This document shows, in pieces, positions 2,329-46,789 of a stretch of 61,468 nt of DNA; the stretch's first letter is position 1, and each line of letters opens with the position of its first letter. The position numbers and the translations under genes are program-made. This DNA is from a virus (lineage: Duplodnaviria > Caudoviricetes), in IMG/VR virus record IMGVR_UViG_3300012924_000002, positions 1-61,468 of that record; one strand, 5' to 3'. The notes under the pieces are model-generated. The model had not been told where the DNA came from, made no database searches, and was given only the letters and a program-made list of their open reading frames with translations.

Positions 2329-4098
2329 CTAAACGTCTAGGTCCGTGACCCCGAGGGCCGCGAACTCGGCCGCGATACGCGCGATACTACGGCCTTGGGG
2401 CTTGACAGGGGTAGATCCACTGGTTTCGGGGACGACCAGCCCGTCGGACGCTGCCGCCGGCTCGTTGCCGCTAGCCACCAGCGAGCGCCGCAGCTGAGTA
2501 ACCGGGGCGGCCTCCCGACTCGCATACCGGTAGGGCAGGTTATCCCAGCGCCGGACCATGCGCGGATCGGTCATAGCCCGCTCACCGCGCTTTTTCGTGC
2601 CGCTCGACCACACTCGGTCAGCCAGGCCGGCGTCCTGCGCCTCAGCCCCGGTGAACCAGGTCTCCTCGACCATCATCTGCAGCCAGTCTTCGGCGTTGCC
2701 CGACTTCACTGCGTACGTCTCGGCGATGTTGCGGTCCTGGCGCTGAAGGAACGTCTGGATCTGCCCGGCGACCTCCTCGTTGCCGTCGATCGTGGTCGAT
2801 GCCCGGTGCACCATCCACTGCGCGCCCGGCATCGTCGTGACCACGTCGCAGGCCATCAGGATGAGCGTGGCAGCGCTGGCGATGATGCCGTCACCCCACC
2901 CGCGGATCGTCTGCCCGCCGTCGGACGCATGCCGGATCGACGAGGCGATCGCTACGGCGTCCGTGACTGAGCCTCCCGGCGAGTTGACCCGCACGTTGAT
3001 CACCGGCGTATCGATCTTCGCGAGATCGCGGGCGAACTGGCTGGCGGTCACGCCCATCGACCCACCGATCTCGTCGTAGATCAGGATGTCGGTTTCCGCC
3101 GCGCCGACCGTTTCCGTAACGGTGCCATCTTCCGCCGCCGGGTCGTCGCCCAGTTCCGAACCGGTCACCGCGCGTACCTCATACCAGGGCAGCGCAACGT
3201 TCAGCAGCTCACGCGGGCCGTAGCCGGTCGCCTCCGCGAGCACCGCGTAACGCTCAGCCGTGTTCGCCCGGCGCCACTGCAGCATCCGCACGTGCGGGCT
3301 GGCGGTGCGGTCCACCATCGGTGGCTTCACGACGATTCGCTCCCGGGCCTCCGTCTGCCGTTCGACGTCAGCGACGCTGAGGCGGGCCGCAGCCTCCTCG
3401 CGTGCCGCCCGCGGCAGGTGGTCAAGGGCACGCATGAACTCGCCGGCCGAGCCGGCAATGTCCGTGTACGGGTTCGCACCGTTGTTAACGGCGCTGACGT
3501 CGCCACCGTCCAGGTCATAGGCGCGAATCTGGAAGGTGGTGAAGTCGTCCGTCCACACCCCCTGACCCTCGGGGATCATGAACGCGAAGGACATCTCTTC
3601 GACGTCGCCATCCTTGACGGCCGCGGCGAGTATCTGCACGTCGCCGCGCTCCAGGTTCATCCATGACTCGTGGTGCCCGCCGGTGCTGTCCTCGGTGAGG
3701 ATCAAACTGCCGGTCTTCGTCCGGGCCATTGCGACCCCGAGATGGTTGACCAGAAAGCACACGTTCGGCCGGGCCGCCAGGGTGGCCGCACCAGAGCCCC
3801 CCATGGTCATTTCGACGTAGACGCCATAGTCGTCCCACATCTCGTAACCACGCTCGTAGGCGGTGAAGTAACCCAGGGTGTGGAACTGAAGTTTCCCCGA
3901 CGGACCGGGCTCTTTGGTGCCGCGCATCATCGTCTGGATGGACACTCGCCGGGCGCGGGGCACCCCCGCCACCAGGCTGCGCTGTCGCATGAACGCAGCC
4001 GAGTCGTTGCCGTCCCGTTCAGCTGCCCGTTCTGCTGCGGCGCGCCGTGCGTCCGCGGCGCGCCGTTCGATCTGCGTCGTCACGCTGCTTCCCCTCAC
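2329..4098 (-). CDS. Prohead protease: HK97-type protease fused to a ClpP-like domain
   Basis: N-half FLVNH...MARTK.GSL...EMSFAF; C-half ILIYDEIG...VRVNSPGG...IIASAATLI...MVH...ETWF. Confidence 0.85.
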   Translation of the reverse strand: MRGSSVTTQIERRAADARRAAAERAAERDGNDSAAFMRQRSLVAGVPRARRVSIQTMMRGTKEPGPSGKLQFHTLGYFTAYERGYEMWDDYGVYVEMTMGGSGAATLAARPNVCFLVNHLGVAMARTKTGSLILTEDSTGGHHESWMNLERGDVQILAAAVKDGDVEEMSFAFMIPEGQGVWTDDFTTFQIRAYDLDGGDVSAVNNGANPYTDIAGSAGEFMRALDHLPRAAREEAAARLSVADVERQTEARERIVVKPPMVDRTASPHVRMLQWRRANTAERYAVLAEATGYGPRELLNVALPWYEVRAVTGSELGDDPAAEDGTVTETVGAAETDILIYDEIGGSMGVTASQFARDLAKIDTPVINVRVNSPGGSVTDAVAIASSIRHASDGGQTIRGWGDGIIASAATLILMACDVVTTMPGAQWMVHRASTTIDGNEEVAGQIQTFLQRQDRNIAETYAVKSGNAEDWLQMMVEETWFTGAEAQDAGLADRVWSSGTKKRGERAMTDPRMVRRWDNLPYRYASREAAPVTQLRRSLVASGNEPAAASDGLVVPETSGSTPVKPQGRSIARIAAEFAALGVTDLDV

Positions 4099-5417
4099 TT
4101 CGTCGCCGGTGCCGGTTGCACAGGTGCGCCATCACTGGAGGCCGAGTCTCCCGAACTGCCCCCACCCGGCGCTAGAGCCGGAACTGTTTCGGCCTCGCCG
4201 GGCGTCGGCGGTCCCGCGCCGGACGCCTTCGGCTTGCCGTAGATCTCGGTCATCTCCTTGACCTGCTCGGGCGTCAACGGTCCCTTGTCGTCGAGCAACC
4301 GGGCTTCCGTGTTGGTCGACTGCCAGGTCTCGATCTGCGAGCGGATCAACTGCTGGCGGCTGATCGGATCCAGCCGCAGCAGTGCGTCGGTGTTCAGCTT
4401 CACGTAGCGCGGCGCCGGCAGCAGGTTCGTCAGCGCCTCCTCACGCCGGTTGATACCCGGCCCGAGGTGGATGATCAGGAACTCAAGGTTGCGCTGGCTG
4501 ATGTTCGCGTACGTGATCGACTGCCCGGACACGGCGGCGTCGATGATGTCCGACGGGACCGCGAAAAAGCGGGCGATGTCGCCGAGGCCGAAACGGCGGC
4601 CTTCCAGCCACTCCATGCCGGCCTGCTCCGCCTGAATCATGTTGTATTCCCAGTCGTTACCCGTCACCATCAGGTCGCCGTTCTGGATGGTGTCGTGGTA
4701 CCACTGCTTCGCCGAGTCCCGCTCGATGTCACCGAGCCTCTTGACGGTGTTCTTCATCCACGCTTTCGGTACGCCACCGGAGCTGAACCAGTCGTTCGCG
4801 TACTGCTGCAGCGACAGGTACTCGCCGATGCTGGCAGCCGCGTACACCAGCGGAGACAGGCCGATCGGGGTGCCCGACCACGGGTACTGCCGCTCGTGGT
4901 AGACGTCGGGCAGGTTGTACATCTTGCCCGCGATGCGCCACATCCGCTTGCCCTTGTACTGGATCAGCGAACAGCTGCGGGTGTCCTGCAGCTGGATCTC
5001 CGCGGGCAGGCCCTCCGGGTAGAACTGCGTCTTTACGCCGTTGCGTGCCGTGATCAACCCCACGGTGTTGCCCACGTAGTCGAGGTCGTGTTGGCTGGCC
5101 CACATCCACTGTTTGTACGTCCAGCCCTGCCCGCCCGGGGAGTAGAACAGGGGCGGCCGCGGCAGCTCGACAGGCCGGTCACCCATATCGCGCAGGAACC
5201 GCGGCGGGAACGTAGAGATCAGGTCCGCCCGGATCCTGGTCGCGGCCCACACACCGGAGTGCCGTAGGCCGCGGTCCTCGTTCACCAGTACGGCACCGTG
5301 CCGACCCACGCTTTGGCGGCCCGGGATGAGCGCCCCGCCGTTGTCCATGAAGCCTGTGAGGCCGCTGAACTCGCGCCGCTGCCTAGATTGCGTGTACGCG
5401 CGACGGAACATGCTCAC
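4095..5417 (-). CDS. Portal protein (HK97 family)
   Basis: GLSPL motif, IARFFAVP, TYAN; lies between terminase and protease. Confidence 0.92.
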   Translation of the reverse strand: MSMFRRAYTQSRQRREFSGLTGFMDNGGALIPGRQSVGRHGAVLVNEDRGLRHSGVWAATRIRADLISTFPPRFLRDMGDRPVELPRPPLFYSPGGQGWTYKQWMWASQHDLDYVGNTVGLITARNGVKTQFYPEGLPAEIQLQDTRSCSLIQYKGKRMWRIAGKMYNLPDVYHERQYPWSGTPIGLSPLVYAAASIGEYLSLQQYANDWFSSGGVPKAWMKNTVKRLGDIERDSAKQWYHDTIQNGDLMVTGNDWEYNMIQAEQAGMEWLEGRRFGLGDIARFFAVPSDIIDAAVSGQSITYANISQRNLEFLIIHLGPGINRREEALTNLLPAPRYVKLNTDALLRLDPISRQQLIRSQIETWQSTNTEARLLDDKGPLTPEQVKEMTEIYGKPKASGAGPPTPGEAETVPALAPGGGSSGDSASSDGAPVQPAPATK

Positions 5418-5730: not shown

Positions 5731-7367
5731 CCCAGCGACTCCATCACGTCGTAAGAGCCGCCCAGCCACTCCTGAGCGTCGCCGGCCGCTATCGCCAACG
5801 TCGCCGCGTACACCGGGCCGGTGTCCGCGGTCGACTCGTCGCGGTGCCAACTCCACCGGTCGCCGTGGAAATGCTTCACCAGGCCGCCTACGCTCTGATC
5901 GAATTCGGGCTGCCCGGAGTGCTGCAGCCTGCGCAACGTCGGGGCGTTGTCCTCGTCATCGTCAGTCTCCCCGGTCAGGTTGTAGAACGTCGCGCAGGCT
6001 GCGGTCACCTTCGGACTGGGTAACAGCTCGATCGTGAGGTCGACGTTCTCGTCGATCGCTGCCCTCTTCAACGGCGTGTACAGGCCCTCGATAGGCCCGT
6101 TGCGATCGATACCAACCGCGCACACCTTCCGGTTACGGGCCAACGCGATGATCGCGTCTTGCAGCCAGTCCACCCTCGCGCGGCGGTCGATCAGCTCTAC
6201 GTACACGTCACCCTTCTCCTCAACCTGCGCTGCCATGCTGATGGATGCGCTGCTCAGCTGCCGGTTCGCATCGACACCCAACGCGATCGGCTCGCGGAAG
6301 TCGGGAGACCCCGTGCGGCGCAACCCCCACGCCTCACGGCTGATCGTCTTCCACTCCACCACCTGCGTGGTCGGGAAAATCCCCAGGTACTCCGCCGCGA
6401 AGTCCGCTAGCTTGCCCTCGTCGGCAGCGGTCCGGTAGTCCTCCTGGATGCGTGACTCCGGGACCGTGAAACCAAGACCTGGCATGGTGCGCCACCACAC
6501 GTCAGGGTCGCCGCAGTTGACGTCCTCGATCTTCTCCGCTGCGGAGAACTCGAAGTAGGCCCGGCCATGCCGCATATCCGCCCGCACGCGCTGGCGGCCG
6601 GCCTCCATCCGCAGCCTGAGCCACGGCCAGGCGTCCGGCGCGACCCTGGACGCACCCGGCACCATCGACAGCGCCCACAGCTGCGACCATGGCCGGGTCA
6701 TCATGGCGGGGCGCATACCCAGCTCGGTGCGGTTGTCAGGCCGTGACCACGCCTCGTCGATGACCCCCAGGTCGATCGAGTCGCCGGTACCGCCTGTCTT
6801 ACCTGTCGTCGACCCGGGCGACCAGGACGAACCGTTGACCCAGCGCATCTCCTCCTTGTTCTGCGTCAAGGTTGGCGACTGCGCCCACATCTGCCGAAAC
6901 GGTGACTGTTTGATCGCCTCCACGTGCTTACGGCGCCAGCGCACCCGGGCGTCGTCGGCGGTCTGCGCCGTGAAGAACACCCGCTGAGGGCCAGGCTCGG
7001 GGACCTTGATCCCGTACTCCCGGCGGGCAAACTCGACGAGTTCATGGCCGACGCCGGTACATCGGTGGATCATCACCGGCTCGATCTGCTGCGTCTTCCC
7101 GCTCACCTGACGAGGACCGACGAACGTCACATCCGAGTAGGCGAACAGCCCCGTCCTCTCGTCGATCTCCAGCGACACATCCCAGATGTACTGCTGGTGC
7201 GGCATGGGCGGCATCCCCATAGCCGTCGCGATCTTCCCGACCGCCGGGCCGAGTGTCAGTCGGCTAGGGGTCCTTCGGGTAGCGAACCTCGGCGGACACG
7301 GGAGCTCCTCCGGAGCTAGGTGTGCTGAGGAGTTCAGCCAGGAGTTCTCGATCATGGGAATTCGCAT
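5727..7367 (-). CDS. terL: Terminase large subunit (start may be 7355)
   Basis: PMPHQ, PRQVSGKT Walker A, VIDEAW Walker B, ALGVDA nuclease motif; upstream of portal. Confidence 0.92.
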   Translation of the reverse strand: MRIPMIENSWLNSSAHLAPEELPCPPRFATRRTPSRLTLGPAVGKIATAMGMPPMPHQQYIWDVSLEIDERTGLFAYSDVTFVGPRQVSGKTQQIEPVMIHRCTGVGHELVEFARREYGIKVPEPGPQRVFFTAQTADDARVRWRRKHVEAIKQSPFRQMWAQSPTLTQNKEEMRWVNGSSWSPGSTTGKTGGTGDSIDLGVIDEAWSRPDNRTELGMRPAMMTRPWSQLWALSMVPGASRVAPDAWPWLRLRMEAGRQRVRADMRHGRAYFEFSAAEKIEDVNCGDPDVWWRTMPGLGFTVPESRIQEDYRTAADEGKLADFAAEYLGIFPTTQVVEWKTISREAWGLRRTGSPDFREPIALGVDANRQLSSASISMAAQVEEKGDVYVELIDRRARVDWLQDAIIALARNRKVCAVGIDRNGPIEGLYTPLKRAAIDENVDLTIELLPSPKVTAACATFYNLTGETDDDEDNAPTLRRLQHSGQPEFDQSVGGLVKHFHGDRWSWHRDESTADTGPVYAATLAIAAGDAQEWLGGSYDVMESLG

Positions 7368-9109: not shown

Positions 9110-9261
9110 AAACGCCTCATCCTCTCCGTTACCCTGGACGTCACGCATCCCCCGTGACGTGAGACAGGGGAAGCGTGACCTGTGCGCAGTGTAAGTCCGG
9201 AGCCGACCTCTCAACGAGAGCGTGTCGGATGCGCCTGTCAGCATCGAGAAGGGGTCCAACC

Positions 9262-9732
9262 GTGCAGTTCGCCAACCAGCCGCCGAAACCACGCCACACC
9301 GGACGCAACATCACCCTCATCGCGTTGGCCGTGCTCCTCGGCCTATGCGGCCTCATCGGCGGTATCGCCGGGGCCATCACCTTCGCCACGTCGTCCCCCA
9401 CACCCCCGGCGTTGTCCGCCGGACAGACGCCGGACAGTGCCGGACAGCCGGACAGTGCCGGACAGCTCAGCGGCAAAGCTGGACCTGCGGTCAAGTCGAC
9501 CGTCGGGGGTGACGACGTCGTCCACGTCGGCCAGGACATTCCCGCAGGCACCTACCGGGTAGTCACGGCCGTCACCAAAGACGCCCTCTGCTACTGGTCG
9601 AAGAGTTCCGACGCTGAAGGCGCCAACATCATCGACAACGGGATACCCGCCGGCGGACGGCCCCAGGTCACCCTCAAGGCCGGCCAATGGTTCACCTCCC
9701 GCGGCTGCCCTACCTGGTCGAAGGTCGGCTGA
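9262..9732 (+). CDS. Membrane-anchored surface protein
   Basis: One TM helix, then VGQDIPAGTY...CYW...F.SRGC.TW domain typical of actinobacterial surface proteins. Confidence 0.7.
   Translation: MQFANQPPKPRHTGRNITLIALAVLLGLCGLIGGIAGAITFATSSPTPPALSAGQTPDSAGQPDSAGQLSGKAGPAVKSTVGGDDVVHVGQDIPAGTYRVVTAVTKDALCYWSKSSDAEGANIIDNGIPAGGRPQVTLKAGQWFTSRGCPTWSKVG
9418..9465 (+). repeat. Five direct copies of GCCGGACAG
   Basis: Copies start at 9418, 9429, 9439, 9447, 9457. Confidence 0.85.
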
Positions 9733-18107: not shown

Positions 18108-18446
18108 TCAGCCCGGCGCGTACCAGTCCCGGCTCGTCCCAACCCGGCGTTCGCCGGCGCCCTTCGACTGGTTGCACAGCCGGTGGCAGGTCGGGCAGCG
18201 GTTGTGCCCGGTGCGCCTGGTCCGGTCGGAGCCCATCGAACCGTGCGCCGGTTGCAGGTTCTGTACGCCATCGAAGCCGGGCAGCATTCGACCGGCATCG
18301 TCCACCGGCCAGCGCGGTTTTGGGATGATGTGATCCACCGTCAGCGCCCCGCGGTGCCCGCACAACCCACACAGGTCCGATGCTGCGAGGATCAGCACCC
18401 GGTTTTGCTGAAATTCCCGGGTACCGGAGCGGCCCGAACCGGTCAT
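18108..18446 (-). CDS. HNH endonuclease (packaging-associated type)
   Basis: CGLCGH...TVDHIIP...NLQPAH...CNQSKG. Confidence 0.9.
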   Translation of the reverse strand: MTGSGRSGTREFQQNRVLILAASDLCGLCGHRGALTVDHIIPKPRWPVDDAGRMLPGFDGVQNLQPAHGSMGSDRTRRTGHNRCPTCHRLCNQSKGAGERRVGTSRDWYAPG

Positions 18447-20290
18447 CCCACGGACCCTGCCGCCGTGGTGCCGCCGTCGTACTGCAGGCTCCCGCTGGAC
18501 CCGGAGTCGGTGATCGTGGCACCCCCGGAGCTGTCGACCACACCGAACGGCACAACCCCGCCGGTCTGAACGATGGTCGCGTCGTACGCGGTCACGGTCA
18601 CGGCGGCGAACCCGGCGGGGGCGTTGGTGGGTCCGGAGGCGGTTGCGTCGTACGCGGTCGCCCCGGCGCTGGCGCTCCCAGCCCCAGCCCCCACCTGCAC
18701 GCTCACGTCGAAAGCCGCAGCGGAGGCCACGGCGGCGCCAGCAGCCGGGGCAACGCTTGCCAGGGCATCCAGGCCGACCGCGCTAGCGGTCGTTGTGCCC
18801 GCTTGAACCCCGGCCGCCGCCTGCGCGTCCAGACCGGTCACGGTCGCGCTGGCGGCTCCAGCGTCGACCGTAACAGACGTGCCGGCGTCGTAGCCGGTGA
18901 CGGTGGCGTCGGCCTCGCCCGCGGGTGCGTTGGTACTGCCGGACGTGGTGACCGTCGCGTCGTAGCCAGTCGCGGTGGCGTCGGCTTCGCCAGCGGACGG
19001 GTTGCTGTTGGTTTGAACCGTCGCGTCGTAGCCGGTAACGCTGGCGTCGGCCTCCCCAGCGTTGACAGAGAGGGCGGCCTGCGCGTCGTAGCCGGTTACG
19101 GTGGCATCGGCTTCGCCCGCGTTCGCCGATACGCTGGCTGACGCGTCGTAGCCGGTTACGGTGCCACTGGCCTGGCCAGCCAGTGCACCTGCGGCGGCTT
19201 GTACGTCGTAACCGGTGACGCTGGCGTCGGCCTCCCCGCCGGACGGGTTGCTGTCGGTTTGAACGGTGATGTCGTAGCCGGTCACTGTCACTGCGGCGAG
19301 CCCGGCGGGGACACCCACCGAAGCCTGCGCATCGCTGGCTACGGCGGTCGCGTCGGCGTTGGTGGTGTTGGTCGAGGCCGCCGCGGACGCGTCGTAGCCC
19401 GTGACGCTGGCGTCGGCCTCGCCGGCGGCCGCGGTGACCGCGGCTTGAGCGTCGTAGCCGGTGACAGTCGCGCCCGCCTCGGGGTCGGTGACAGCGTTGA
19501 CGAGCGGCGTCGAAGTGCCGTAGTCGTACGGGTCGGGAACCCAGAACCCGGACGGGGTGAACAGGCCCGGCATGACGCCGGGCAGGAACGCTGACGGGTC
19601 GGCCGGGGCCGGCGCGCCGGTGGCCGTCAGTACTGCGATGAGCAGGCCCGCCCATGGCGCCGCCCCGGCGCCGGTGAACGTCTTCGTCCCCGTCGTCCCG
19701 GACGCCGACAGCTGCTGCACGGCACCGGTGGTGCCCATGCCGCCACCGTTCGACTGGTCGTAGACCTCCGTCATCCCCGATGGGGGCGTGAAACTGGTGA
19801 TGTTCGATCCGCCACCGGAGCTGACGTGACCGATCAGGTATGCGTCGGAGGTCGCGGGGCTGATCGCGGTCAGCGGCATCGTGCTCTGCGAGGTGCCGCT
19901 GGCGGAGCCGCTGGCTGAGCCGTCGATGACGGTGGTGATGTCCGCGCCGGACAGCACGTAGGCGAAGAGGCTTTTCTCCTCGTCCGAGGTGCCCGTCTCG
20001 GTGACGGCAACCGTCAGGTTCCCCGTGGACGAGACGACGTAGTAGTAGCCCTTCGCGTGACCTTCGTTGCTTCCGCCGTCGGCGGATGCGCCCGTGATAG
20101 CGGTGACGCCGGCCGTGGAGCCCCCCACTGTGGGGGTGGGCATGTTCGACAGCAGGTAGAAGTCGTTGCAATGGATGATGATCAGAACATCGCTGGCCTG
20201 CGGCTGCGTCGTGCCTGACAGCGTCAGGGAGACGGACGTGGCAACGGAGTTGCTAAATGCAGGGGCTCCACTGCGTATTGCGATCGACAC
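18443..20290 (-). CDS. Fibre-like virion protein with about 15 repeats of ~20 aa (AGEADASVTGYDA...)
   Basis: Ser/Thr/Gly-rich N-domain, Pro linker, tandem repeats. Confidence 0.75.
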   Translation of the reverse strand: MSIAIRSGAPAFSNSVATSVSLTLSGTTQPQASDVLIIIHCNDFYLLSNMPTPTVGGSTAGVTAITGASADGGSNEGHAKGYYYVVSSTGNLTVAVTETGTSDEEKSLFAYVLSGADITTVIDGSASGSASGTSQSTMPLTAISPATSDAYLIGHVSSGGGSNITSFTPPSGMTEVYDQSNGGGMGTTGAVQQLSASGTTGTKTFTGAGAAPWAGLLIAVLTATGAPAPADPSAFLPGVMPGLFTPSGFWVPDPYDYGTSTPLVNAVTDPEAGATVTGYDAQAAVTAAAGEADASVTGYDASAAASTNTTNADATAVASDAQASVGVPAGLAAVTVTGYDITVQTDSNPSGGEADASVTGYDVQAAAGALAGQASGTVTGYDASASVSANAGEADATVTGYDAQAALSVNAGEADASVTGYDATVQTNSNPSAGEADATATGYDATVTTSGSTNAPAGEADATVTGYDAGTSVTVDAGAASATVTGLDAQAAAGVQAGTTTASAVGLDALASVAPAAGAAVASAAAFDVSVQVGAGAGSASAGATAYDATASGPTNAPAGFAAVTVTAYDATIVQTGGVVPFGVVDSSGGATITDSGSSGSLQYDGGTTAAGSVG

Positions 20291-26922: not shown

Positions 26923-27089
26923 TTGGATCTCCTCATGTTCGGGGTGTTGGGCTTGCGACGACCACTCGGGGCGAGCGGTGTCCTACATGCAGCAAGTTGG
27001 CTAGCTTCGACCCGTATTGCCCCCAGCCCGTTCTGTCCTAGTTGTGGGTGCCCTGCGGGTGCCTTTGGGCGAAAAATTCCAGGATCCCA

Positions 27090-27260
27090 TTTCGATCATG
27101 AGACGCTGATTTTGTGTGCCACGCCGTCTCATGATCGATGTCCATTTAGTGGCTAAATTATGTCCGCTAGTGTCTGAATCTCATGAGATCCCATTACCGT
27201 CTCACAGCGTCCCACGTCCCACCCCCCTATAGGGGGTGGGATGGGTGGGACGTGGGACCT
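27090..27260. other. Candidate replication origin
   Basis: Non-coding, relatively AT-rich, downstream of the helicase; nested GTCCCAC palindrome around CCCCCTATAGGGGG; TCATGAGA repeats. Confidence 0.55.
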
Positions 27261-27293
27261 GGCGGCTGGGACATGGAACCCCCAAAAACAAGA

Positions 27294-28472
27294 TCAAAAG
27301 AGCGGGTCGGGGGGTGGAGGCGGAGGCAAGTCCGGGGCCTCAGGTTCGGGTCGCTCTCCCGGCGGAATCCCAGGATCTCCAGTGAGCGCGTACCTCGGTG
27401 CGCGGCCACCCGTCGACACCACGTAGTCGAGACGGAGGAGATCCTGGCGGTGCCGGTGGAACGTCGACCGGGGACGGCCCGTCGCCTCGATCAGAACGTT
27501 CGGCGTCTGCCACTCCCGCCGGAAGTGCTCCCACCACTTGCGCGCCGTGAACATGACGTCCTCCTGCAGCGCCTGAACCAAGCTCCCCTGCCCCAGGTTC
27601 GAGGTTGCGATCAACACGGCAGACGACCCGTTACTGACCAACTGGAACTCGACGGCTGCCCACTCCGGTGCGTCTTTGTTCTTCACACAGGACAACGTGA
27701 CCAGGCCGTCGGACTTCTCGCACCGCATGATCGTGGTCAAGGCGCCGTCCAGGGTTGTCGCACCACGGCCACGCTCACCGCCAGCTCCGACGTGGTGCAC
27801 AAGCAGGGTGCACGCGTTGGAAGCCTTACGTAGACGCTCAGCCTGTTGCACGAAGGTGCCCATCTCCTTGTTCGAGTTCTCCTCGACACCGACGGTGACC
27901 CGGGCCTGGGTGTCGACGACGATCAGGGTGTAGCCGACCTCCCGCGCTGCACCGACCAGCGCGTCCCAGTGGGAGCCGTTCGTGGACTGCACCGGGAACG
28001 GCAGGAAGTCGACACCGATCATCGGCTTACCGTGCTTGCGCTCCCACGCCCGCACACGCTGTTTAACGCCCCTGACGCCCTCTGCAGCGATGTAGAGCAC
28101 CCGACCCTGCCGAACCGGGTGCCTATGCCACGCTGTGCCCGTACCGACGCAGCCAGCTAGGTCTAAGGCCACGAAGGATTTCCCTTCACCAGGCTTGCCG
28201 ACCAACCAGTTCAGGGTGTCTACGAACAGATGTTCGTCTCCGACGAGCGGGACAGGTTCGGGGATGGAGTCGAGTTGATCCGTGGTGAGCAGCGCCCCGC
28301 GTAGCCGTTTGATCAGGTCGGCCTTGTGGTCGGTGGTCCGCTCCTCCTCGGGCTGCTCACGGATGGCGCCCTCATCCAGCGGCGGCGGCGGCTCCACGAA
28401 GGGGTTCTCGTCGTCCTCTGGCGGTTCACGCCAGGCAGACGGGTCGTCGGGGTCGTACGGCAGGTCCGGCAT
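27294..28472 (-). CDS. RepA-like AAA helicase (AAA_25)
   Basis: GKPGEGKS Walker A, VLYIAAEG, IVVDTQAR Walker B, LLVHH, RG.T. Confidence 0.88.
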   Translation of the reverse strand: MPDLPYDPDDPSAWREPPEDDENPFVEPPPPLDEGAIREQPEEERTTDHKADLIKRLRGALLTTDQLDSIPEPVPLVGDEHLFVDTLNWLVGKPGEGKSFVALDLAGCVGTGTAWHRHPVRQGRVLYIAAEGVRGVKQRVRAWERKHGKPMIGVDFLPFPVQSTNGSHWDALVGAAREVGYTLIVVDTQARVTVGVEENSNKEMGTFVQQAERLRKASNACTLLVHHVGAGGERGRGATTLDGALTTIMRCEKSDGLVTLSCVKNKDAPEWAAVEFQLVSNGSSAVLIATSNLGQGSLVQALQEDVMFTARKWWEHFRREWQTPNVLIEATGRPRSTFHRHRQDLLRLDYVVSTGGRAPRYALTGDPGIPPGERPEPEAPDLPPPPPPDPLF

Positions 28473-35276: not shown

Positions 35277-35645
35277 GTTGTTTCGCTCCTATCCTTGGGT
35301 GCTGTGTGCCTTTCGAGGCCCCTACTTCGGGTCGCTGATTTTGACCTGCCTGCTAGCGCGTACCCGGCGTCGTTCCTTCGCGACAGCCAGCCGTTCCGGC
35401 GACCCCTGCTGCTGCGCCCGCTGGCGCTGTGCGCGTCCGGCGCCGGCAACCGCATCCGTCGTGATACGTGGACTCCACCACATGGCGAGAACCTTTCGGG
35501 GGGTTAGAAGAGTTGGGCGGCCGGGACAGCGCGTCGGGAAAACCTTGACCGGCCGCTGGCCGGCCGCCCCGCCGGTTTAGCACCCGGTCCGGCTCCCGGT
35601 TGAGATCCCCCGGTCATCCGACCAAGAGGGGCCGGGGGTCGTGCG

Positions 35646-35718
35646 TGGACCGGGCGGGGATCGAACCCGCGAGTGAAGGTCTGAAGAAGACCCAACGGGG
35701 GCGCCAGCCCCCCAGCCC
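35646..35718 (-). ncRNA. 73-nt tRNA-like cloverleaf with non-canonical D and anticodon arms
   Basis: GGGCTGG/CCGGTCC-A acceptor; GCGGG-TTCGATC-CCCGC T arm; 5-nt loop in the anticodon-position arm; no CCA. Confidence 0.65.
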
Positions 35719-35771
35719 TAGTGCTTCCCGTTTCGCGGAGACCGGCCGGGAAGCGAACGCCGGATCGCAGA

Positions 35772-41998: not shown

Positions 41999-42367
41999 AT
42001 GATCCGCAACCTGATCACTGCCGCAGCAGTCATCTCCGCTACCGCGCTCACCGCCTGCGCGCCCCCCGCCCCGCTGAACTGCCCGGCCGCGGACTACGCG
42101 ATCACGACCAGCACCATCCGCGGGCCGCTGAACAACCACACGTGGCCGATCACGATCACCATCACCGACCCTGCCGGCGGTAGCCGCGCCGTCGCTTACG
42201 AGACGCTCGACGACCAGGGCAAGATCCGGGCCGCCGCCACCGTCACCACCCACGGTGGAGCCGCCTCTGCGAAGTGGAACATCGGTGAGTACGTCACCTC
42301 CCTGAAGCTGCGCACCGAGGTCGACTCTGTTGACGGGTGCGACACCACCGACGGCTACATCCGCTGA
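41999..42367 (+). CDS. Lipoprotein
   Basis: Lipobox LTAC; hairpin RBS TTCC-AGGGAG-GGAA. Confidence 0.75.
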   Translation: MIRNLITAAAVISATALTACAPPAPLNCPAADYAITTSTIRGPLNNHTWPITITITDPAGGSRAVAYETLDDQGKIRAAATVTTHGGAASAKWNIGEYVTSLKLRTEVDSVDGCDTTDGYIR

Positions 42368-42405
42368 GCACGATCCACCGACACCACCCCAAGGGAGACC
42401 CGATC

Positions 42406-42621
42406 ATGTTCGAGCCGCAGACCATCCAGCTGAGCCCGTCGTCCGCCGCGGAGATCGTCGTCGAGAACGGTCGCGTCCGACTGATCCACTCCGGGAAGTA
42501 CGGAGACGCCGACGTGACCACCATGTCGGACGACGATGCTGACACGATCGCCGGCGCGCTGAAGGCGGCTGCCGCTGCGAACCGTGCGAACCGCGATGCG
42601 AACGCCTCGCGGGTTCGCTAG
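42406..42621 (+). CDS. Hypothetical protein
   Basis: AAGGGAG RBS. Confidence 0.6.
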   Translation: MFEPQTIQLSPSSAAEIVVENGRVRLIHSGKYGDADVTTMSDDDADTIAGALKAAAAANRANRDANASRVR

Positions 42622-43045
42622 CGAAGATCCAGACATCCCGGCCCCCGTTCGCATGCGAACGGGGGGCCGCTTCGCGTTCGCATGCGAACTTCGCACGAGG
42701 GGCGAACGTGCGCCGTTCGCACCCAGCAGCGAACACGCGTGCCGGAACCGGACAACGCGTGCTACGTTCGCATGCATGTCTGCCGACACGAAAACGAACG
42801 AACGTTCGCGCCCAGTGAGGAGCGAACGTTCGCGACGCCTCATGCGAACGGTCATCGGCTTCGTAGCCGCTTCGGCGTTCGCAGCCTTCGCGATACAGGC
42901 GTGGTTCGCATACGGCTTCGCACGACAGGTACTTAAGCTGCCCGTCGCGCTTTCGTTCGCAGTGCCCGTAGCGAACGACCTGTACATCGTGACGCTGATG
43001 GTTATCAGCTACCTACTTCGCTTCGCGCACCTTCGCGTTCGCGCG
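42575..43045. repeat. Dense TTCGC/GCGAA motif array 1
   Basis: About 29 copies by hand count in ~470 bp; palindrome GTTCGCATGCGAAC at 42647 and 42676. Confidence 0.85.
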
Positions 43046-43717
43046 TACGTCTGGTCGGTGTTGGGGCTGGGCATTGCGACGCAGATCGGCGCCGCCTGGT
43101 CGTTCGAGCGGTGGAGGGCCACGGGCGAACACACGGGGGTGTCGGTCGCCGCGCTGGTACCGGCCGCGCTGCTCGCGGCTGCCATGCACTCGCTGATCAT
43201 CGCGGCGAGGCACATCGACGAGTCAGACGACCAGGGGTACAGGCCGGTCCGGCCTGACCGGGGGTGGCGTGACGCAGCGATCGAGGCCCATGGCAGGCAC
43301 GTCGCCAGCGCCGAGGAGCAGGCCGCAGGTCGCGCCCCGGTGACCGCCCCGCCGTCCCGCCCGGACCGGGCGGCGCAGGCCCCGCCCATCTCGTCAGGCC
43401 GCGGCGCGTCCCGGCCGGCCAACCTGGTCCGTGAGCTGGCCGTGAAGCGTCGGCTCGCTGGTGAGCCGGCGGCTCTGATCGCAGCCGAGCTGGGTGTTAC
43501 TCCGCGGGCCGTACAGGGCTGGGTGAAGGACCATCACCGTACGCAGCGTAACTCTGGATCTAGTGAGATGCAGCGGCCTGCAATTGCCGGCGAGGCCGCT
43601 TTCTCCCCTAAGGAAATCGGGACGCCTGGCCGTGAGATGCAGGGTGATGTTGGAGGGCATGTCGGCCCAAAGGGGATGCCTGCAAGAGGCGCGTCTGACC
43701 GAATGCAAGAGAGTTGA
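42776..43717 (+). CDS. DUF2637/Spd-like membrane protein with C-terminal HTH
   Basis: 4 TM helices with P.A.D motif; IAAELGVT.RAVQGW HTH; next to traB. Confidence 0.7.
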   Translation: MSADTKTNERSRPVRSERSRRLMRTVIGFVAASAFAAFAIQAWFAYGFARQVLKLPVALSFAVPVANDLYIVTLMVISYLLRFAHLRVRAYVWSVLGLGIATQIGAAWSFERWRATGEHTGVSVAALVPAALLAAAMHSLIIAARHIDESDDQGYRPVRPDRGWRDAAIEAHGRHVASAEEQAAGRAPVTAPPSRPDRAAQAPPISSGRGASRPANLVRELAVKRRLAGEPAALIAAELGVTPRAVQGWVKDHHRTQRNSGSSEMQRPAIAGEAAFSPKEIGTPGREMQGDVGGHVGPKGMPARGASDRMQES

Positions 43718-43759: not shown

Positions 43760-46159
43760 GTGGACGTGAGCACTGACCAGAACTACGTGGGCGGCGGCGG
43801 CCGTGGTAGCGGCCGGATGGGCTACCAGCATGAGCAAATGCACGAGCGCCGGATCCCGGTGCGCGACCGTTTCGTGCCGTTCCTGGCACCCTTCCTGATG
43901 ACGTTCGTCGTCGTGCCCGGGGTCGAGCTGATCTCCTGGGGGTTCTGCAAGCTCTGGGTCGGCTACCTGGGGATGGTGGTCATCGGCTGGTGCGTTACGG
44001 GCAGCCTTGTCGCTGTGGTCTCCTACGGCATCGGCCGCAACGTCAGCAAGCGAGTCCCGTGGGTGTACGTCCACGTCACGATCACCAGCCTCGCGTGGGG
44101 CTACGCATCGGCGTTCACGACCGCGTACGGCCTGTGGACGACACCCCCGTGGCTTGTCGTACACGCGTTCGGTTCGCTTCTGTTCGCACTGTCGTGGGTG
44201 CTGTACCGCATCGATTCGCTTCGCAGTGCGGCTGCGAACAACGATGCGAAGAACTACTGGGGCGAAGTGATCGGGCTTCGCAGTTCGCATCCGCGAAAGA
44301 TCACGCCGACGCCGACGGGGATCGAGATCGAGATCGACCACGGGCCGGGCGAAACGCGAAGCGACGTGCAGGCCGCTGCGAAAAAGCTGGAGTCGGCGAT
44401 GGACGCTGTCGCGGGGCGAACGACCGTGACGGACGTTGCTTCGGGTCGGGCCGGATCTTCGCTCGTTCGCCTCTCGCTGGTCGACGTGTTTCGCGACTGG
44501 TGGGAGGACCCGGGTCCTTCGCATCCGGGCATGTCGTTCGCATACCCGCTTCGCACCGGGTACTACGAGACCGGCGAATGGGAGTGGTTTTCGTTCGCAT
44601 CCTCGCTTCGCTCCCCGCACACCGATTTCGCATCGGAGATGGACACGTTCCTGGGCGCGGCCGGCACGACCGGGTCCGGAAAGTCCGGCGGGATCAACAA
44701 CACTGCCCGGGAGGCACTGACCCGCTGCGACGCGATCGTGTGCTGGCTGGACCGGGCGAAGATCGAACAGAACGCCGGGTGGTGCCTCGACATGCTTGGC
44801 ATGGCAGGCAACGACAGCTCGGCCAAAGCGTTCACGCTGGCGCTGCGCAAGCTCGCCGAGTACCGGGTGAAACTGTTCGGCCAGGTGGCCCTGTCCGCCG
44901 CGCTCGGGACCGACCTCGACAGTGAGCAGGGGCGTAAGTGGACCGCCGAGCTTGCCCAGCAAACCGGTGAGGCCGCCGTCCTGGTGATCGTCGATGAGGC
45001 GGACACCGCGATCCAGGGAACCAACTGGGAGTGGCTGTCCGCCCGCGGCCGGTCGCTGGGGATCTTCCTTCTCGCGGCGACCCCCCGGGCGTCCGCCGCG
45101 GAGGTGCCGGCCCTGGTGCGGGGTTCGATCGGCGCGTGGAAGACGTACGCGATCGGCGACAACTACAGCGACGGCTTCACCCTGTCGGCGGAGACGATGG
45201 ACGCTGGTGCTGACCCGAAGCGTCTGCGTTCGCCGGGGTTGCACTACCTGGACCGGGCGCCGGGTGTTGACCTGCGCCACTGCGCGACCCTGGCCCGGGA
45301 GTTCCGGACGTCCCCCGGTCGGCTACGCGCGTCCGTATTGAAATACAGGGGGGTCACGTTCCAGCCGATGGGTTTCAGTCGGGGTGCGATCGACGCCATG
45401 GGCGACTCGTATCGGCAGTGCAACCCGGCCCGGCTGCTGCCCGGCTGGCAGCCACCCGCGCGCGACGATGAGCTACCCGAGCATGGGCGGCGCACGCAGG
45501 TCGGCCCGGACTTCGTTCAGCGGGTGCTGACCGCGGTTGTCGACGGGTCCGTGGCGAGCACCCCCGACGAGATGGCGGAAGCCCGTCGGATCTTGACGAG
45601 CAACGGAGTGCAGCTCCCCGCGCCGCAGGCAGGGCCGGGCGGCAACATGACTTCCACCGACCGACTCGGTCCGGTGGGCGACCAAGATGATCAGGAGGAT
45701 GACGAGGACATGCGAGCCACCGCACAGGGAACTGACGAGGAGGCCGGGATCGCCCGGCCTATCGACCCGCGGAGCCTGCTGGACGATGACCAGTGGGACG
45801 ACTTCCAGCAGGCGAACCCGTCGATGGAACTGCCGGTCCGCGACGGCCCGGAGATGACGTTCGAGCACGCGAAGCCGGTCTGGGAGTCCGACGCCGTGGA
45901 GCGGGAGCTGGACCACGTGATCGTGCTGTTCAAGCGGACCGGCAAGACGACGTTCACCAACTCGGACGTGTTGGAGGCGATGCGGTGCTACTTCGACCCG
46001 TCGACCTGTTCCCGCCGACTGGAGGCCCTGTCGACGGGCTCCCGTACCGCGCCGGGCGGCTTGGGCGTGACCCGGACAGGCCGCGGTGAGTTCGAGATCT
46101 TGGGCGAACTCGACGAGTCGTACCAGCGCCCCCGTCCGCACCGCCCCGAAGGGAACTGA
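43760..46159 (+). CDS. traB: TraB-like FtsK/SpoIIIE conjugal DNA translocase
   Basis: N-terminal TM helices, AGTTGSGKS Walker A, VIVDEAD Walker B, RGRSLGI.L..AT.R, C-terminal wHTH. Confidence 0.8.
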   Translation: MDVSTDQNYVGGGGRGSGRMGYQHEQMHERRIPVRDRFVPFLAPFLMTFVVVPGVELISWGFCKLWVGYLGMVVIGWCVTGSLVAVVSYGIGRNVSKRVPWVYVHVTITSLAWGYASAFTTAYGLWTTPPWLVVHAFGSLLFALSWVLYRIDSLRSAAANNDAKNYWGEVIGLRSSHPRKITPTPTGIEIEIDHGPGETRSDVQAAAKKLESAMDAVAGRTTVTDVASGRAGSSLVRLSLVDVFRDWWEDPGPSHPGMSFAYPLRTGYYETGEWEWFSFASSLRSPHTDFASEMDTFLGAAGTTGSGKSGGINNTAREALTRCDAIVCWLDRAKIEQNAGWCLDMLGMAGNDSSAKAFTLALRKLAEYRVKLFGQVALSAALGTDLDSEQGRKWTAELAQQTGEAAVLVIVDEADTAIQGTNWEWLSARGRSLGIFLLAATPRASAAEVPALVRGSIGAWKTYAIGDNYSDGFTLSAETMDAGADPKRLRSPGLHYLDRAPGVDLRHCATLAREFRTSPGRLRASVLKYRGVTFQPMGFSRGAIDAMGDSYRQCNPARLLPGWQPPARDDELPEHGRRTQVGPDFVQRVLTAVVDGSVASTPDEMAEARRILTSNGVQLPAPQAGPGGNMTSTDRLGPVGDQDDQEDDEDMRATAQGTDEEAGIARPIDPRSLLDDDQWDDFQQANPSMELPVRDGPEMTFEHAKPVWESDAVERELDHVIVLFKRTGKTTFTNSDVLEAMRCYFDPSTCSRRLEALSTGSRTAPGGLGVTRTGRGEFEILGELDESYQRPRPHRPEGN
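44165..44635. repeat. Dense TTCGC/GCGAA motif array 2, inside traB
   Basis: About 24 copies by hand count in ~470 bp. Confidence 0.8.
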
Positions 46160-46161
46160 TC

Positions 46162-46593
46162 ATGGCTACGAGCAACACAGCAGCGGCAGGCGCCGGTCCC
46201 ATCCTCATCTTCCCCCCGAAGACGATCGTCATCAGGGGCGACGTCTCGGCGACCGAATGGTGCAACGCCGGCCGCGCCCAGTTCGACGGGTTCGCCCGTT
46301 GGATGGACAGCTACACCGCGGCGCTGGCCGCGGACCTGGCCGAGATGATGCGTAACGAGGGCATCGACGGGCAGACCTCCATCGGCCCGATCTCGTGGGG
46401 GTCGTCGGCGCGCGCCGCCGCCGCGAAAGCGACGAAGCCGTTGAGAGCGATCGCGTCGGAAGCGTCGAACATGGCCCGCATGTTCACCGTCGCCGACAAG
46501 CAGATGCAGGCGCAGGTGTTCGAGGTGATCCGGCAGGTGCGGGCGGCGCGTGAGCGTCAGCAGCGCGGCTCCGGGCTGTCGATCGGCGCGTGA
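46162..46593 (+). CDS. Helical transfer-accessory (TraA-like) protein
   Basis: Directly after traB; all-alpha; family assignment from context. Confidence 0.5.
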   Translation: MATSNTAAAGAGPILIFPPKTIVIRGDVSATEWCNAGRAQFDGFARWMDSYTAALAADLAEMMRNEGIDGQTSIGPISWGSSARAAAAKATKPLRAIASEASNMARMFTVADKQMQAQVFEVIRQVRAARERQQRGSGLSIGA

Positions 46594-46597
46594 CCTC

Positions 46598-46789
46598 ATG
46601 CATCCGAAGGACGAACGGCTGATGACTCCGGGCGAGGTTGCCGCACTGTTTCGGGTGGACCCGAAGACGGTGACTCGGTGGGCGAAGGTCGGGCGGATCG
46701 GCTCCATCCGCACACCGGGCGGTCATCGCCGGTTCCGCGAGTCAGAGGTTCGGGCGCTTCTCAAGGCGCCCGGTACCGACACCGAGTAA
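46598..46789 (+). CDS. bldC: BldC-family (MerR/Xis-like) DNA-binding protein
   Basis: LMTPGEVAALFRVDPKTVTRWAK.G.I.SIRT.GGHRRFRESEVRALL, very close to the BldC consensus. Confidence 0.9.
   Translation: MHPKDERLMTPGEVAALFRVDPKTVTRWAKVGRIGSIRTPGGHRRFRESEVRALLKAPGTDTE

Follow-up and report, generated by a model that had tools for sequence, protein, structure and literature searches.

Paired TTCGC arrays at a membrane-helix-turn-helix gene of a tailed phage: candidate sites for tethering DNA at the membrane

Introduction

What reads a five-letter word that is written 29 times, in both orientations and at irregular spacing, across the putative promoter and 5′ end of a phage gene? The question is raised by a virus genome of 61,468 bp (IMG/VR record IMGVR_UViG_3300012924_000002; the whole record is called the window below), in which TTCGC and its reverse complement GCGAA crowd into two stretches, array 1 and array 2. 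Array 1 covers the start of a gene for a protein with a predicted N-terminal membrane domain and a C-terminal helix-turn-helix (HTH), referred to as the membrane-HTH protein, while array 2 lies inside the next gene, which encodes a TraB/FtsK-like protein. Both arrays are under selection at the level of the DNA, occupy conserved positions in related phage genomes, and change their word in concert. On balance, they are probably cognate site arrays of the membrane-HTH protein encoded between them, through which phage DNA would be tethered at the membrane. Loci are identified, where needed, as W (the window), L003–L007 and L011 (related viral loci), L008 (pCQ4), and L017–L020 (Streptomyces plasmid loci).

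Array 1: extent and statistics

Array 1 (42577..43042) contains 29 copies of TTCGC/GCGAA with the extended word S-TTCGC-A; the copies start between 42577 and 43038, and the final one ends at 43042. This count agrees with a preliminary description of the same DNA, which gave about 29 copies in about 470 bp in both orientations. Its rough expectation of about one copy was also fair, as base composition (GC 0.663) predicts ~1.0 per 500 bp by hand calculation; observed counts per 500-bp interval over all 61,468 bp have a median of 2 and a mean of 2.01. No other 5-mer of the genome is as strongly clustered locally as TTCGC, and 13 of the 23 genomic copies of GTTCGCA fall in array 1. The edges are sharp, as previously described: the interval 42101-42600 has four copies, three of these at positions of at least 42577, and past 43038 there is a single copy at 43125, with the next only at 44173. 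Between these limits the array runs, as first reported, through a gene end, an intergenic gap, and coding sequence, namely the last 45 bp of a small upstream gene (42406-42621), a 154-bp gap, and the first ~270 bp of the membrane-HTH gene.

Several of the intergenic sites are arranged in palindromes. The 14-bp palindrome GTTCGCATGCGAAC, already noted to occur twice, has exactly two copies in the whole record, at 42647 and at 42676 (42676..42689). The first copy is embedded in a perfect 24-bp palindrome, CCCCCGTTCGCATGCGAACGGGGG (42642..42665), which lies 21 bp past the stop of the upstream gene and holds a head-to-head site pair at 42647-42660. This longer palindrome could also form a hairpin terminator.

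Shuffling places the strongest excess outside coding sequence. The intergenic part has 13 copies, compared with a mean of 0.47 and a maximum of 4 in 1000 mononucleotide shuffles. In the coding part 42842-43045 (204 bp), where the preliminary description had called for a synonymous-shuffle check, the enrichment persists, with 11 copies versus 6.6 (maximum 9; none of 1000 synonymous shuffles reaches 11) and versus 2.1 when codon order is shuffled. The 62-bp tail of the upstream gene is weak alone, its four copies being set against 1.5 expected and matched by 18 of 1000 shuffles. Within the membrane-HTH gene, six of the 12 copies are in-frame TTC-GCx (Phe-Ala); approximately half of the coding excess consists of Phe-Ala dipeptides, which suggests that the protein is itself partly shaped around the word.

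Tandem Repeats Finder detects neither array and reports only tiny two-copy repeats at array 1, which makes the earlier epithet “hidden” apt and excludes a tandem-repeat explanation. Pair distances over nine arrays show no period and no helical phasing of the sites, with small peaks at 3, 5, and 7 bp that stem from overlapping or palindromic pairs. An RNA explanation is likewise rejected, since Rfam gives no match at gathering score anywhere in the window.

Array 2 and selection on the DNA

Array 2 (44173..44631) consists of 24 copies of TTCGC/GCGAA inside the traB-like gene, over codons ~138-290, in both orientations and all three frames. Synonymous shuffles of this region give 6.3 copies with a maximum of 10, and none of 1000 reaches 24 (z 11.9). 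Several of the sites coincide, in W, L003, L007, and L011 alike, with the same conserved residues. L005 retains the amino acids of array 2 as they are in L003 and does not retain the word, and so it is the DNA itself on which selection acts.

The membrane-HTH gene and its product

The gene that array 1 overlaps (42776..43717, plus strand) encodes 313 residues, predicted to be arranged as four long N-terminal helices, a disordered linker, a three-helix HTH, and a disordered tail. Its start is placed at 42776, where the MSADT N-terminus is conserved in L004, L005, and several database relatives. The AlphaFold2 model contains the four long helices at residues 15-150 with predicted local distance difference test (pLDDT) scores of ~70-83 and the HTH at residues 215-260 with pLDDT >90, the recognition helix being PRAVQGWVKDH. 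A Foldseek search of this model against the PDB returns no match at E ≤ 0.001.

The family of the protein is best seen through its relatives. A family profile search collects 346 representatives (50% identity) at E ≤ 1e-3, and DUF2637 scores above its cut-off in three of ten sampled matches of that profile. The window protein itself has no match to PF10935 (DUF2637) at E ≤ 1, its L007 counterpart reaches DUF2637 at 36.3 bits (cut-off 22.8), and its L003 counterpart reaches HTH_23 at 27.8 bits. In the Atlas, the window protein has DUF2637+HTH_23 clusters as neighbours (0.87), no more than a lead. Judged by these sequence relationships, the membrane-HTH protein appears to be a divergent DUF2637+HTH protein, and the Spd-like label first attached to the gene is set aside, as Spd homology is not borne out. 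No function for DUF2637 was found in the literature searched, which comprised titles and abstract starts, and no relatives of the membrane-HTH protein occur in a set of one genome per prokaryote species.

Two further observations concern the relatives. Four proteins that are 46-56% identical to the membrane-HTH protein (P0050-P0053) carry a helix of the form R-S-K/V-R-W-V/A-E… in place of T-P-R-A-V-Q-G-W (window 43430-43560); this difference suggests that the binding domain evolves fast and predicts other words for these proteins. In the L007 counterpart (2844-3941), the membrane domain is separated from the HTH by an additional segment that weakly matches GIY-YIG (E 0.071).

A -10-like TANNNT hexamer, TACGTT (42763..42768, plus strand), is preceded by TGC, is overlapped by a GTTCGCA copy, and stops 7 nt short of the ATG at 42776. 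Five of six loci have such a hexamer: its distance to the ATG is 7 nt in W, L004, L005, and L011 and 8 nt in L007, and L003 lacks one. The conserved position suggests a leaderless mRNA layout, in which case array 1, extending from -199 to +266, would be centred on the membrane-HTH gene's own promoter. TACGTT is accordingly named here only as a putative promoter element; a sigma-70 consensus scan does not list it.

Conservation of the arrays and change of the word

The comparative set comprises seven phage genomes (W, L003-L007, and L011), which further viral scans did not enlarge. Both arrays are present in all six genomes in which both positions are visible (W, L003, L004, L005, L007, and L011), and the layout is the same in each, with the first array centred on the start of the membrane-HTH gene (its 5′ end) and the second positioned 0.3-1.1 kb into traB. 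In L006, which lacks the upstream part, the traB array has 11 TTCGC within 540 bp. The weakest case is L004, whose arrays have 13 and 11 sites where the background is 2.55 per 500 bp.

The word itself falls into two classes with a common CGC(A) core. Class I, S-TTCGC-(A), is used by four of the six loci, and class II, C-G-R-CGCA-(A-C), by the remaining two, L004 and L005, which have CGCAA/CGCA-type sites at both arrays; the switch is therefore concerted. The peaks of the synonymous-shuffle z score along traB follow this division. For TTCGC they reach 11.9 in W, 12.8 in L003, 11.4 in L007, and 7.0 in L011; for CGCAA they reach 10.1 in L005 and 7.8 in L004, with TTCGC attaining just 3.7 in L005.

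Word class is associated with the recognition helix of the membrane-HTH protein. The helix is R-[AS]-[VI]-[QE]-x-W in the class I loci W, L003, L011, and L007 and R-T-A-Q-L-W in the class II proteins of L004 and L005, which are 59% identical to each other. Between L003 (class I) and L005 (class II), the membrane-HTH proteins share only 31% identity. The TraB proteins of these same two loci form the closest pair, at 69% identity and with the helices SRRLGAL and SRRLAAL, yet the words differ. Conversely, the class I word is common to loci whose TraB proteins are only 30-33% identical to that of the window and have the helices SKRF and SRWL versus SRRL. It is therefore suggested, and no more than suggested, that the word follows the recognition helix of the membrane-HTH protein and not TraB, given that the sample is small and holds one switch, with L004 and L005 as sisters.

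The preliminary description had proposed a protein-coating site and named three candidate binders. The sequence comparisons give good support to the former through selection on the DNA, conserved position, and the concerted change of word. Among the latter, the membrane-HTH protein fits best, TraB fits less well in view of L003 and L005, and the BldC/MerR-like protein (46550-46789) is discarded as array reader, having no tblastn counterpart in any of the six related loci (L003-L007 and L011).

A parallel in Streptomyces plasmids

Twelve Streptomyces plasmids encode a pCQ4-type membrane protein, and five of these loci were examined. The pCQ4 gene lies just upstream of traA-traB, and its product has a hydrophobic N-terminal half and a helical C-terminal end. 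Inside this gene are 14 copies of GATGCG/CGCATC in all frames and on both strands. The same enrichment is found in pCQ4, S. seoulensis, S. zaomyceticus, and pSAM1, with 9-14 CGCATC in the gene compared with 2.6-4.6 in synonymous shuffles (maxima 6-8). The arrays (L008, pCQ4, 4020-4500; L017, L018, and L019, ~4850-5300; L020, 4880-5510) all lie inside the membrane-protein gene, upstream of transfer genes.

Only in pCQ4 does the large gene that follows encode TraB; elsewhere it encodes a protein of 15-21% identity that lacks a Walker A motif and is followed by a coupling-protein gene. The large genes beside the arrays in L017-L020, being without Walker A and without a Pfam match, are treated simply as large neighbours and not as TraB. 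A change of word is seen in L020 (S. platensis), whose membrane protein keeps an N-terminal domain 61-63% identical to the other loci, while its C-terminal domain is 14-30% identical to those of the four pCQ4-type loci. Instead of CGCATC, this gene has 32 GCGAA versus 14.7 ± 2.1 in shuffles (maximum 22). The C-terminal 52 residues of the S. tubercidicus protein are identical to those of the L020 protein. In plasmids too, then, the sequences link the word to the C-terminal domain of the membrane protein rather than to the machine encoded next to it. As no homology to the membrane-HTH protein of the window is detectable, the parallel is one of design and not of descent.

Two observations on these plasmids stand apart. 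In S. zaomyceticus (L018), a separate GIY-YIG nuclease gene lies directly upstream of the membrane-protein gene, and pCQ4 carries a terminase gene 2.5 kb from traB.

The neighbouring translocase gene

The TraB/FtsK-like gene (43760..46159, plus strand) encodes 799 residues, with the Walker A motif GTTGSGKS and the Walker B motif VLVIVDEAD in its translation. Hydrophobic helical stretches at the N-terminus and a conserved C-terminal block with invariant R753, L757, P765, and G776 are read by eye. In tblastn, the protein matches the annotated TraB of pCQ3 and pCQ4 at 29% identity over 38-39% of the query (E 5e-11 and 3e-12), and these two Streptomyces plasmids are its only plasmid matches. Its family profile matches the FtsK motor domain 2ius (E 4.4e-4), and no Pfam family is found for it at E ≤ 0.01. 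The protein has 47 relatives in a large protein collection, many on contigs of ~62-63 kb, and none in cultured phages (INPHARED) or in the set of one genome per prokaryote species.

Other short repeats accompany this gene. TGCAA(G) is clustered, mostly in the gap before traB, in L003 (~13 copies, 3796-4000), L005 (~9, 3324-3510), and L004 (4-5, 3807-3932); in L003, all 15 TGCAA copies of the 10-kb locus lie within that stretch. The window has a weak counterpart of just 2-3 copies at 43579-43709, including two TGCAAG (43681..43709, plus strand; at 43681 and 43704) just upstream of the traB-like start, and L007 and L011 have no such cluster before traB. The cluster is present exactly in the clade with the TraB helix SRRL, and this confinement suggests that TGCAA(G) may be a TraB site or a traB operator. 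In L007, 4-5 repeats of the GACTTTCC/CGGAAAG type occur at 6131-6310, directly past the traB-like stop at 6118, where four of the six copies of the 8-mer in that locus are found; they occupy the position of a classical clt, the cis-acting transfer locus of Streptomyces conjugative plasmids. In pCQ4, CTGACA is repeated six times from the last traB codons into ~140 bp past the stop. What we take to be the 8-bp recognition word of pSVH1 TraB occurs 13 times in the window, including once at 46069 within the 3′-terminal part of the traB-like gene, compared with 6.1 ± 2.1 in dinucleotide shuffles (maximum 11 of 100); these copies are dispersed, not clustered, and constitute a lead only.

A membrane tether as the preferred reading

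If the membrane-HTH protein is the reader, its single C-terminal HTH would bind each 5-7-bp word (S-TTCGC-A), either as a monomer or as a pair at palindromes. With one HTH per word, spacing and orientation would be free and ~50 sites could be occupied; the irregular spacing and mixed orientation are consistent with independent monomer sites. The N-terminal four-helix domain would sit in the membrane, so that occupied arrays would hold ~2 kb of phage DNA against its cytoplasmic face, close to where the TraB-like pump is made. Array 2 falls within the first third of the TraB/FtsK-like gene next door. As array 1 would be centred on the protein's own leaderless promoter, its occupancy should also throttle synthesis of the membrane-HTH protein. 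The tether might mark the phage genome in cis for the pump and thereby for spread between hyphal compartments or cells; alternatively, it may serve membrane-attached maintenance of phage DNA in a mycelial host.

Several points count against this reading. Roughly 50 sites far exceed the need of autoregulation, and the position of array 2 within traB would suit a TraB site as well. The HTH of the window protein scores under the Pfam cut-offs (HTH_28, 22.6 versus 25 bits; HTH_23, 17.8 versus 24.6), and its link to DUF2637 is reached only transitively. The covariation of helix and word is based on one switch in seven phage genomes and one in five plasmid loci; the phage case is confounded by phylogeny, L004 and L005 being sister lineages for the membrane protein. 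The TraB proteins of L003 and L005 differ in residues that flank the helix, which leaves TraB a possible reader. Lastly, the plasmid proteins show no detectable homology to the membrane-HTH protein (hmmsearch E 0.016 to 6; hhalign probability 0.2%) and match no DNA-binding family in Pfam; their DNA-binding nature is read by eye only.

Alternative explanations

The arrays might instead be a clt on which the C-terminal winged helix of the TraB-like translocase assembles in order to pump phage DNA. The resemblance of the 799-residue protein to TraB and to the FtsK motor and the presence of array 2 within traB favour this, as does the nature of known clt loci: in PMC3583192 and PMC4447253, those of pSVH1, pIJ101, pJV1, and pWTY27 are described as cis-acting, lineage-specific clusters of 5-9-bp repeats, bound by Tra and located by or partly inside the gene for an FtsK-like translocase. 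Array 1 at 0.7-1.2 kb upstream of traB and array 2 inside it are in keeping with such adjacency, while the copy number and mixed orientation are atypical. PMC3583192 gives 3-9 repeats in 50-175 bp for known loci, whereas here 53 irregular copies are spread over two ~460-bp stretches, on a tailed phage genome and not a plasmid. A clt word is also expected to follow TraB, and in the comparison of L003 with L005 the array word follows the neighbouring membrane-HTH protein despite near-identical C-terminal TraB helices; in addition, class I spans divergent TraB proteins with differing helices, and the plasmid analogues persist beside large genes without Walker A. TGCAA(G) and the GACTTTCC-type repeats, which track the TraB clade, also have positions more typical of a clt. 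The clt label of the preliminary description is not supported as such, and a TraB-bound clt, the main rival, is judged unlikely. A bipartite replication origin, a membrane replication anchor, or a set of DnaA-box-like initiator boxes is more improbable still. Many short boxes in both orientations at irregular spacing do resemble initiator-box clusters, with two of them flanking a gene, and a membrane anchor with a homeodomain-like HTH recalls p16.7 of phi29, which holds replicating phage DNA at the membrane. The replication genes, however, lie 8-15 kb off on the other strand (helicase/primase, 27294-28472; Erf, exonuclease, and RuvC), and the module is located among transfer-type genes, as its plasmid analogues adjoin a TraB or coupling-protein gene in transfer regions. 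A better candidate origin is the AT-richer, palindrome-rich stretch at 27080-27270 by the helicase gene.

Two explanations would dispense with a tether altogether. The arrays could be purely regulatory, with autorepression operators and a roadblock on a potentially toxic traB-like gene in a kil-kor-like arrangement. Array 1 is centred on the putative leaderless promoter, with one site over the -10 hexamer, and array 2 occupies part of the 5′ third of traB; according to PMC4447253, traB and traR make up kil-kor pairs on plasmids; and no GntR-type regulator is recognised among the 42 window proteins scanned against Pfam and/or PHROGs, a scan that took in only part of the small open reading frames. 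Against this, operators seldom call for 25-30 copies each, no reason is apparent for a regulator to carry a four-helix membrane domain, and the plasmid analogue arrays are in the linker-coding part of the gene and not on the promoter. Regulation can coexist with tethering; as the sole role of the arrays it is about as improbable as an origin. That the clustering is a by-product of protein sequence or composition, such as Phe-Ala-rich helices, is hardly credible. In its favour are the in-frame Phe-Ala copies, the 6.6 of 11 copies that synonymous shuffles retain, and the conservation of FA-rich motifs such as AIQAWxAYGFA even in class II loci. It is excluded by the 13 non-coding copies where 0.47 are expected, by the synonymous shuffles of array 2, whose copies use all frames and both strands, by the L005 comparison, and by a change of word that hits both arrays.

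Relation to known systems

The SpdA2-sps system of pIJ101 would be similar to array 1, if the membrane-HTH protein is the reader, in that the site lies in the binder's own gene. PMC4170104 describes SpdA2 as a DNA-binding protein of the transfer/stability region, with its motif within or beside its own gene, and states that the sps motif constrains the amino acid sequence of the SpdA protein itself. According to the same paper, SpdA proteins have 117-163 residues and an N-terminal DNA-binding region, in contrast to the 313 residues, N-terminal membrane domain, and C-terminal HTH found here, and sps comprises 1-3 copies of one conserved 12-bp palindrome, as opposed to ~50 short sites of a lineage-specific word. 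The 12-bp palindrome (motif from PMC4170104) has no match in the window with up to one mismatch.

The DUF2637 (PF10935)+HTH_23 proteins of Actinomycetota match the architecture predicted here, that of a helical membrane domain and a C-terminal homeodomain-like HTH, with the reservation that the window's own protein falls short of the Pfam model.

Iteron centromeres (parC-ParR, tubC-TubR) and membrane or pole anchors (RacA-ram, Noc-NBS, phi29 p16.7) likewise consist of short-site copies coated by a small DNA-binding protein, and some of the resulting handles are attached to the membrane or cell pole and act together with a DNA motor. Centromeric iterons are regular, whereas the arrays have no regular spacing by pair distances or Tandem Repeats Finder, and the binder proposed here would be an integral membrane protein. 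No partition nucleoside triphosphatase of the ParM, TubZ, or ParA type is recognised among the 42 scanned proteins, which represent the small open reading frames only in part.

The Streptomyces plasmid-phages pZL12, pFP4, and pCQ4 resemble the window in combining phage structural genes and traB on one replicon, a concept cited in PMC4170104. The TraB-like protein of the window differs in being only 29% identical over 38-39% of its length and in lacking matches in INPHARED phages. Neither arrays of this kind nor a function for membrane-HTH proteins is described in the literature searched, which covered few subscription journals.

Genomic setting and other features

With direct terminal repeats and a completeness rating of 100%, the window represents an entire virus record; its GC content is 66%. 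It encodes a major head protein, protease, portal, large terminase, and tape measure as well as a helicase/primase, an Erf-like annealing protein, an exonuclease, and a RuvC-like resolvase. Terminal repeats together with head, tail, and replication genes identify a tailed phage and no integrated conjugative element, and an actinomycete integrative and conjugative element (AICE) at a tRNA is ruled out on the same grounds. No integrase, partition protein, or plasmid initiator is recognised among the 42 scanned proteins.

Both arrays belong to a plus-strand island, 41999 to ~50271, that is surrounded by minus-strand genes. Its genes encode a lipoprotein-like product, a 71-residue protein, the membrane-HTH protein, the 799-residue TraB/FtsK-like protein, and small proteins that include a MerR/HTH_17 member. 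The 71-residue protein (42406..42621, plus strand) belongs to no family, and the last 45 bp of its gene carry the first copies of array 1, read as A-N-R repeats. The MerR/HTH_17 (BldC-like) protein (46550-46789, plus strand) scores 45.8 bits for HTH_17.

Some features elsewhere in the window deserve mention. The AT-richer non-coding stretch at 27080-27270 adjoins the 3′ end of the helicase/primase gene, contains inverted GATCATGAGACG repeats and a long GTCCCAC-rich palindrome, and is a candidate replication origin or terminator judged by these sequence features. ARAGORN calls a 90-nt minus-strand tRNA-Ala(GGC) at 35645-35734, which is doubtful since the Rfam scan lists no tRNA at gathering score. 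Five near-tandem copies of GCCGGACAG (9410-9465, within the open reading frame 9175-9732) read as a short peptide repeat (…SAGQ…) and hence represent a coding repeat and no site array. A minus-strand open reading frame of 615 residues (18443-20290) without a family match has internal CGTAGCC/GCTACGAC repeats, six copies within 470 bp, and probably encodes a repetitive structural protein.

Significance

Should the arrays be read by the membrane-HTH protein, they would provide a first function and a DNA target for a large family of unknown function, of which the branch of the window alone has 346 representatives at 50% identity. They would also constitute a second cis element for TraB-type transfer of double-stranded DNA, in which recognition has so far been ascribed to TraB alone. 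The lineage-specific words offer a natural specificity code, with the helix R-A-V paired with TTCGC and R-T-A with CGCAA, a code that is drawn from two switches in seven phage genomes and five plasmid loci.

A wider possibility is put forward tentatively. DUF2637-type and analogous membrane-plus-HTH proteins may be widespread, unrecognised sequence-specific membrane DNA tethers in actinomycete mobile elements, each having an array of 10-50 short sites peculiar to it, placed within or near the gene that encodes it, and protein and array may together form a cis handle that delivers double-stranded DNA to TraB or to the coupling protein of a type IV secretion system. With such a module, a tailed phage of this group could move its genome inside a mycelium, or retain it there, without virions. 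PMC4447253 offers the suggestion that Spd-type membrane proteins could serve actinophages in spreading DNA through the mycelium; a tailed phage with a complete “mark the DNA and pump it” module would make that suggestion testable.

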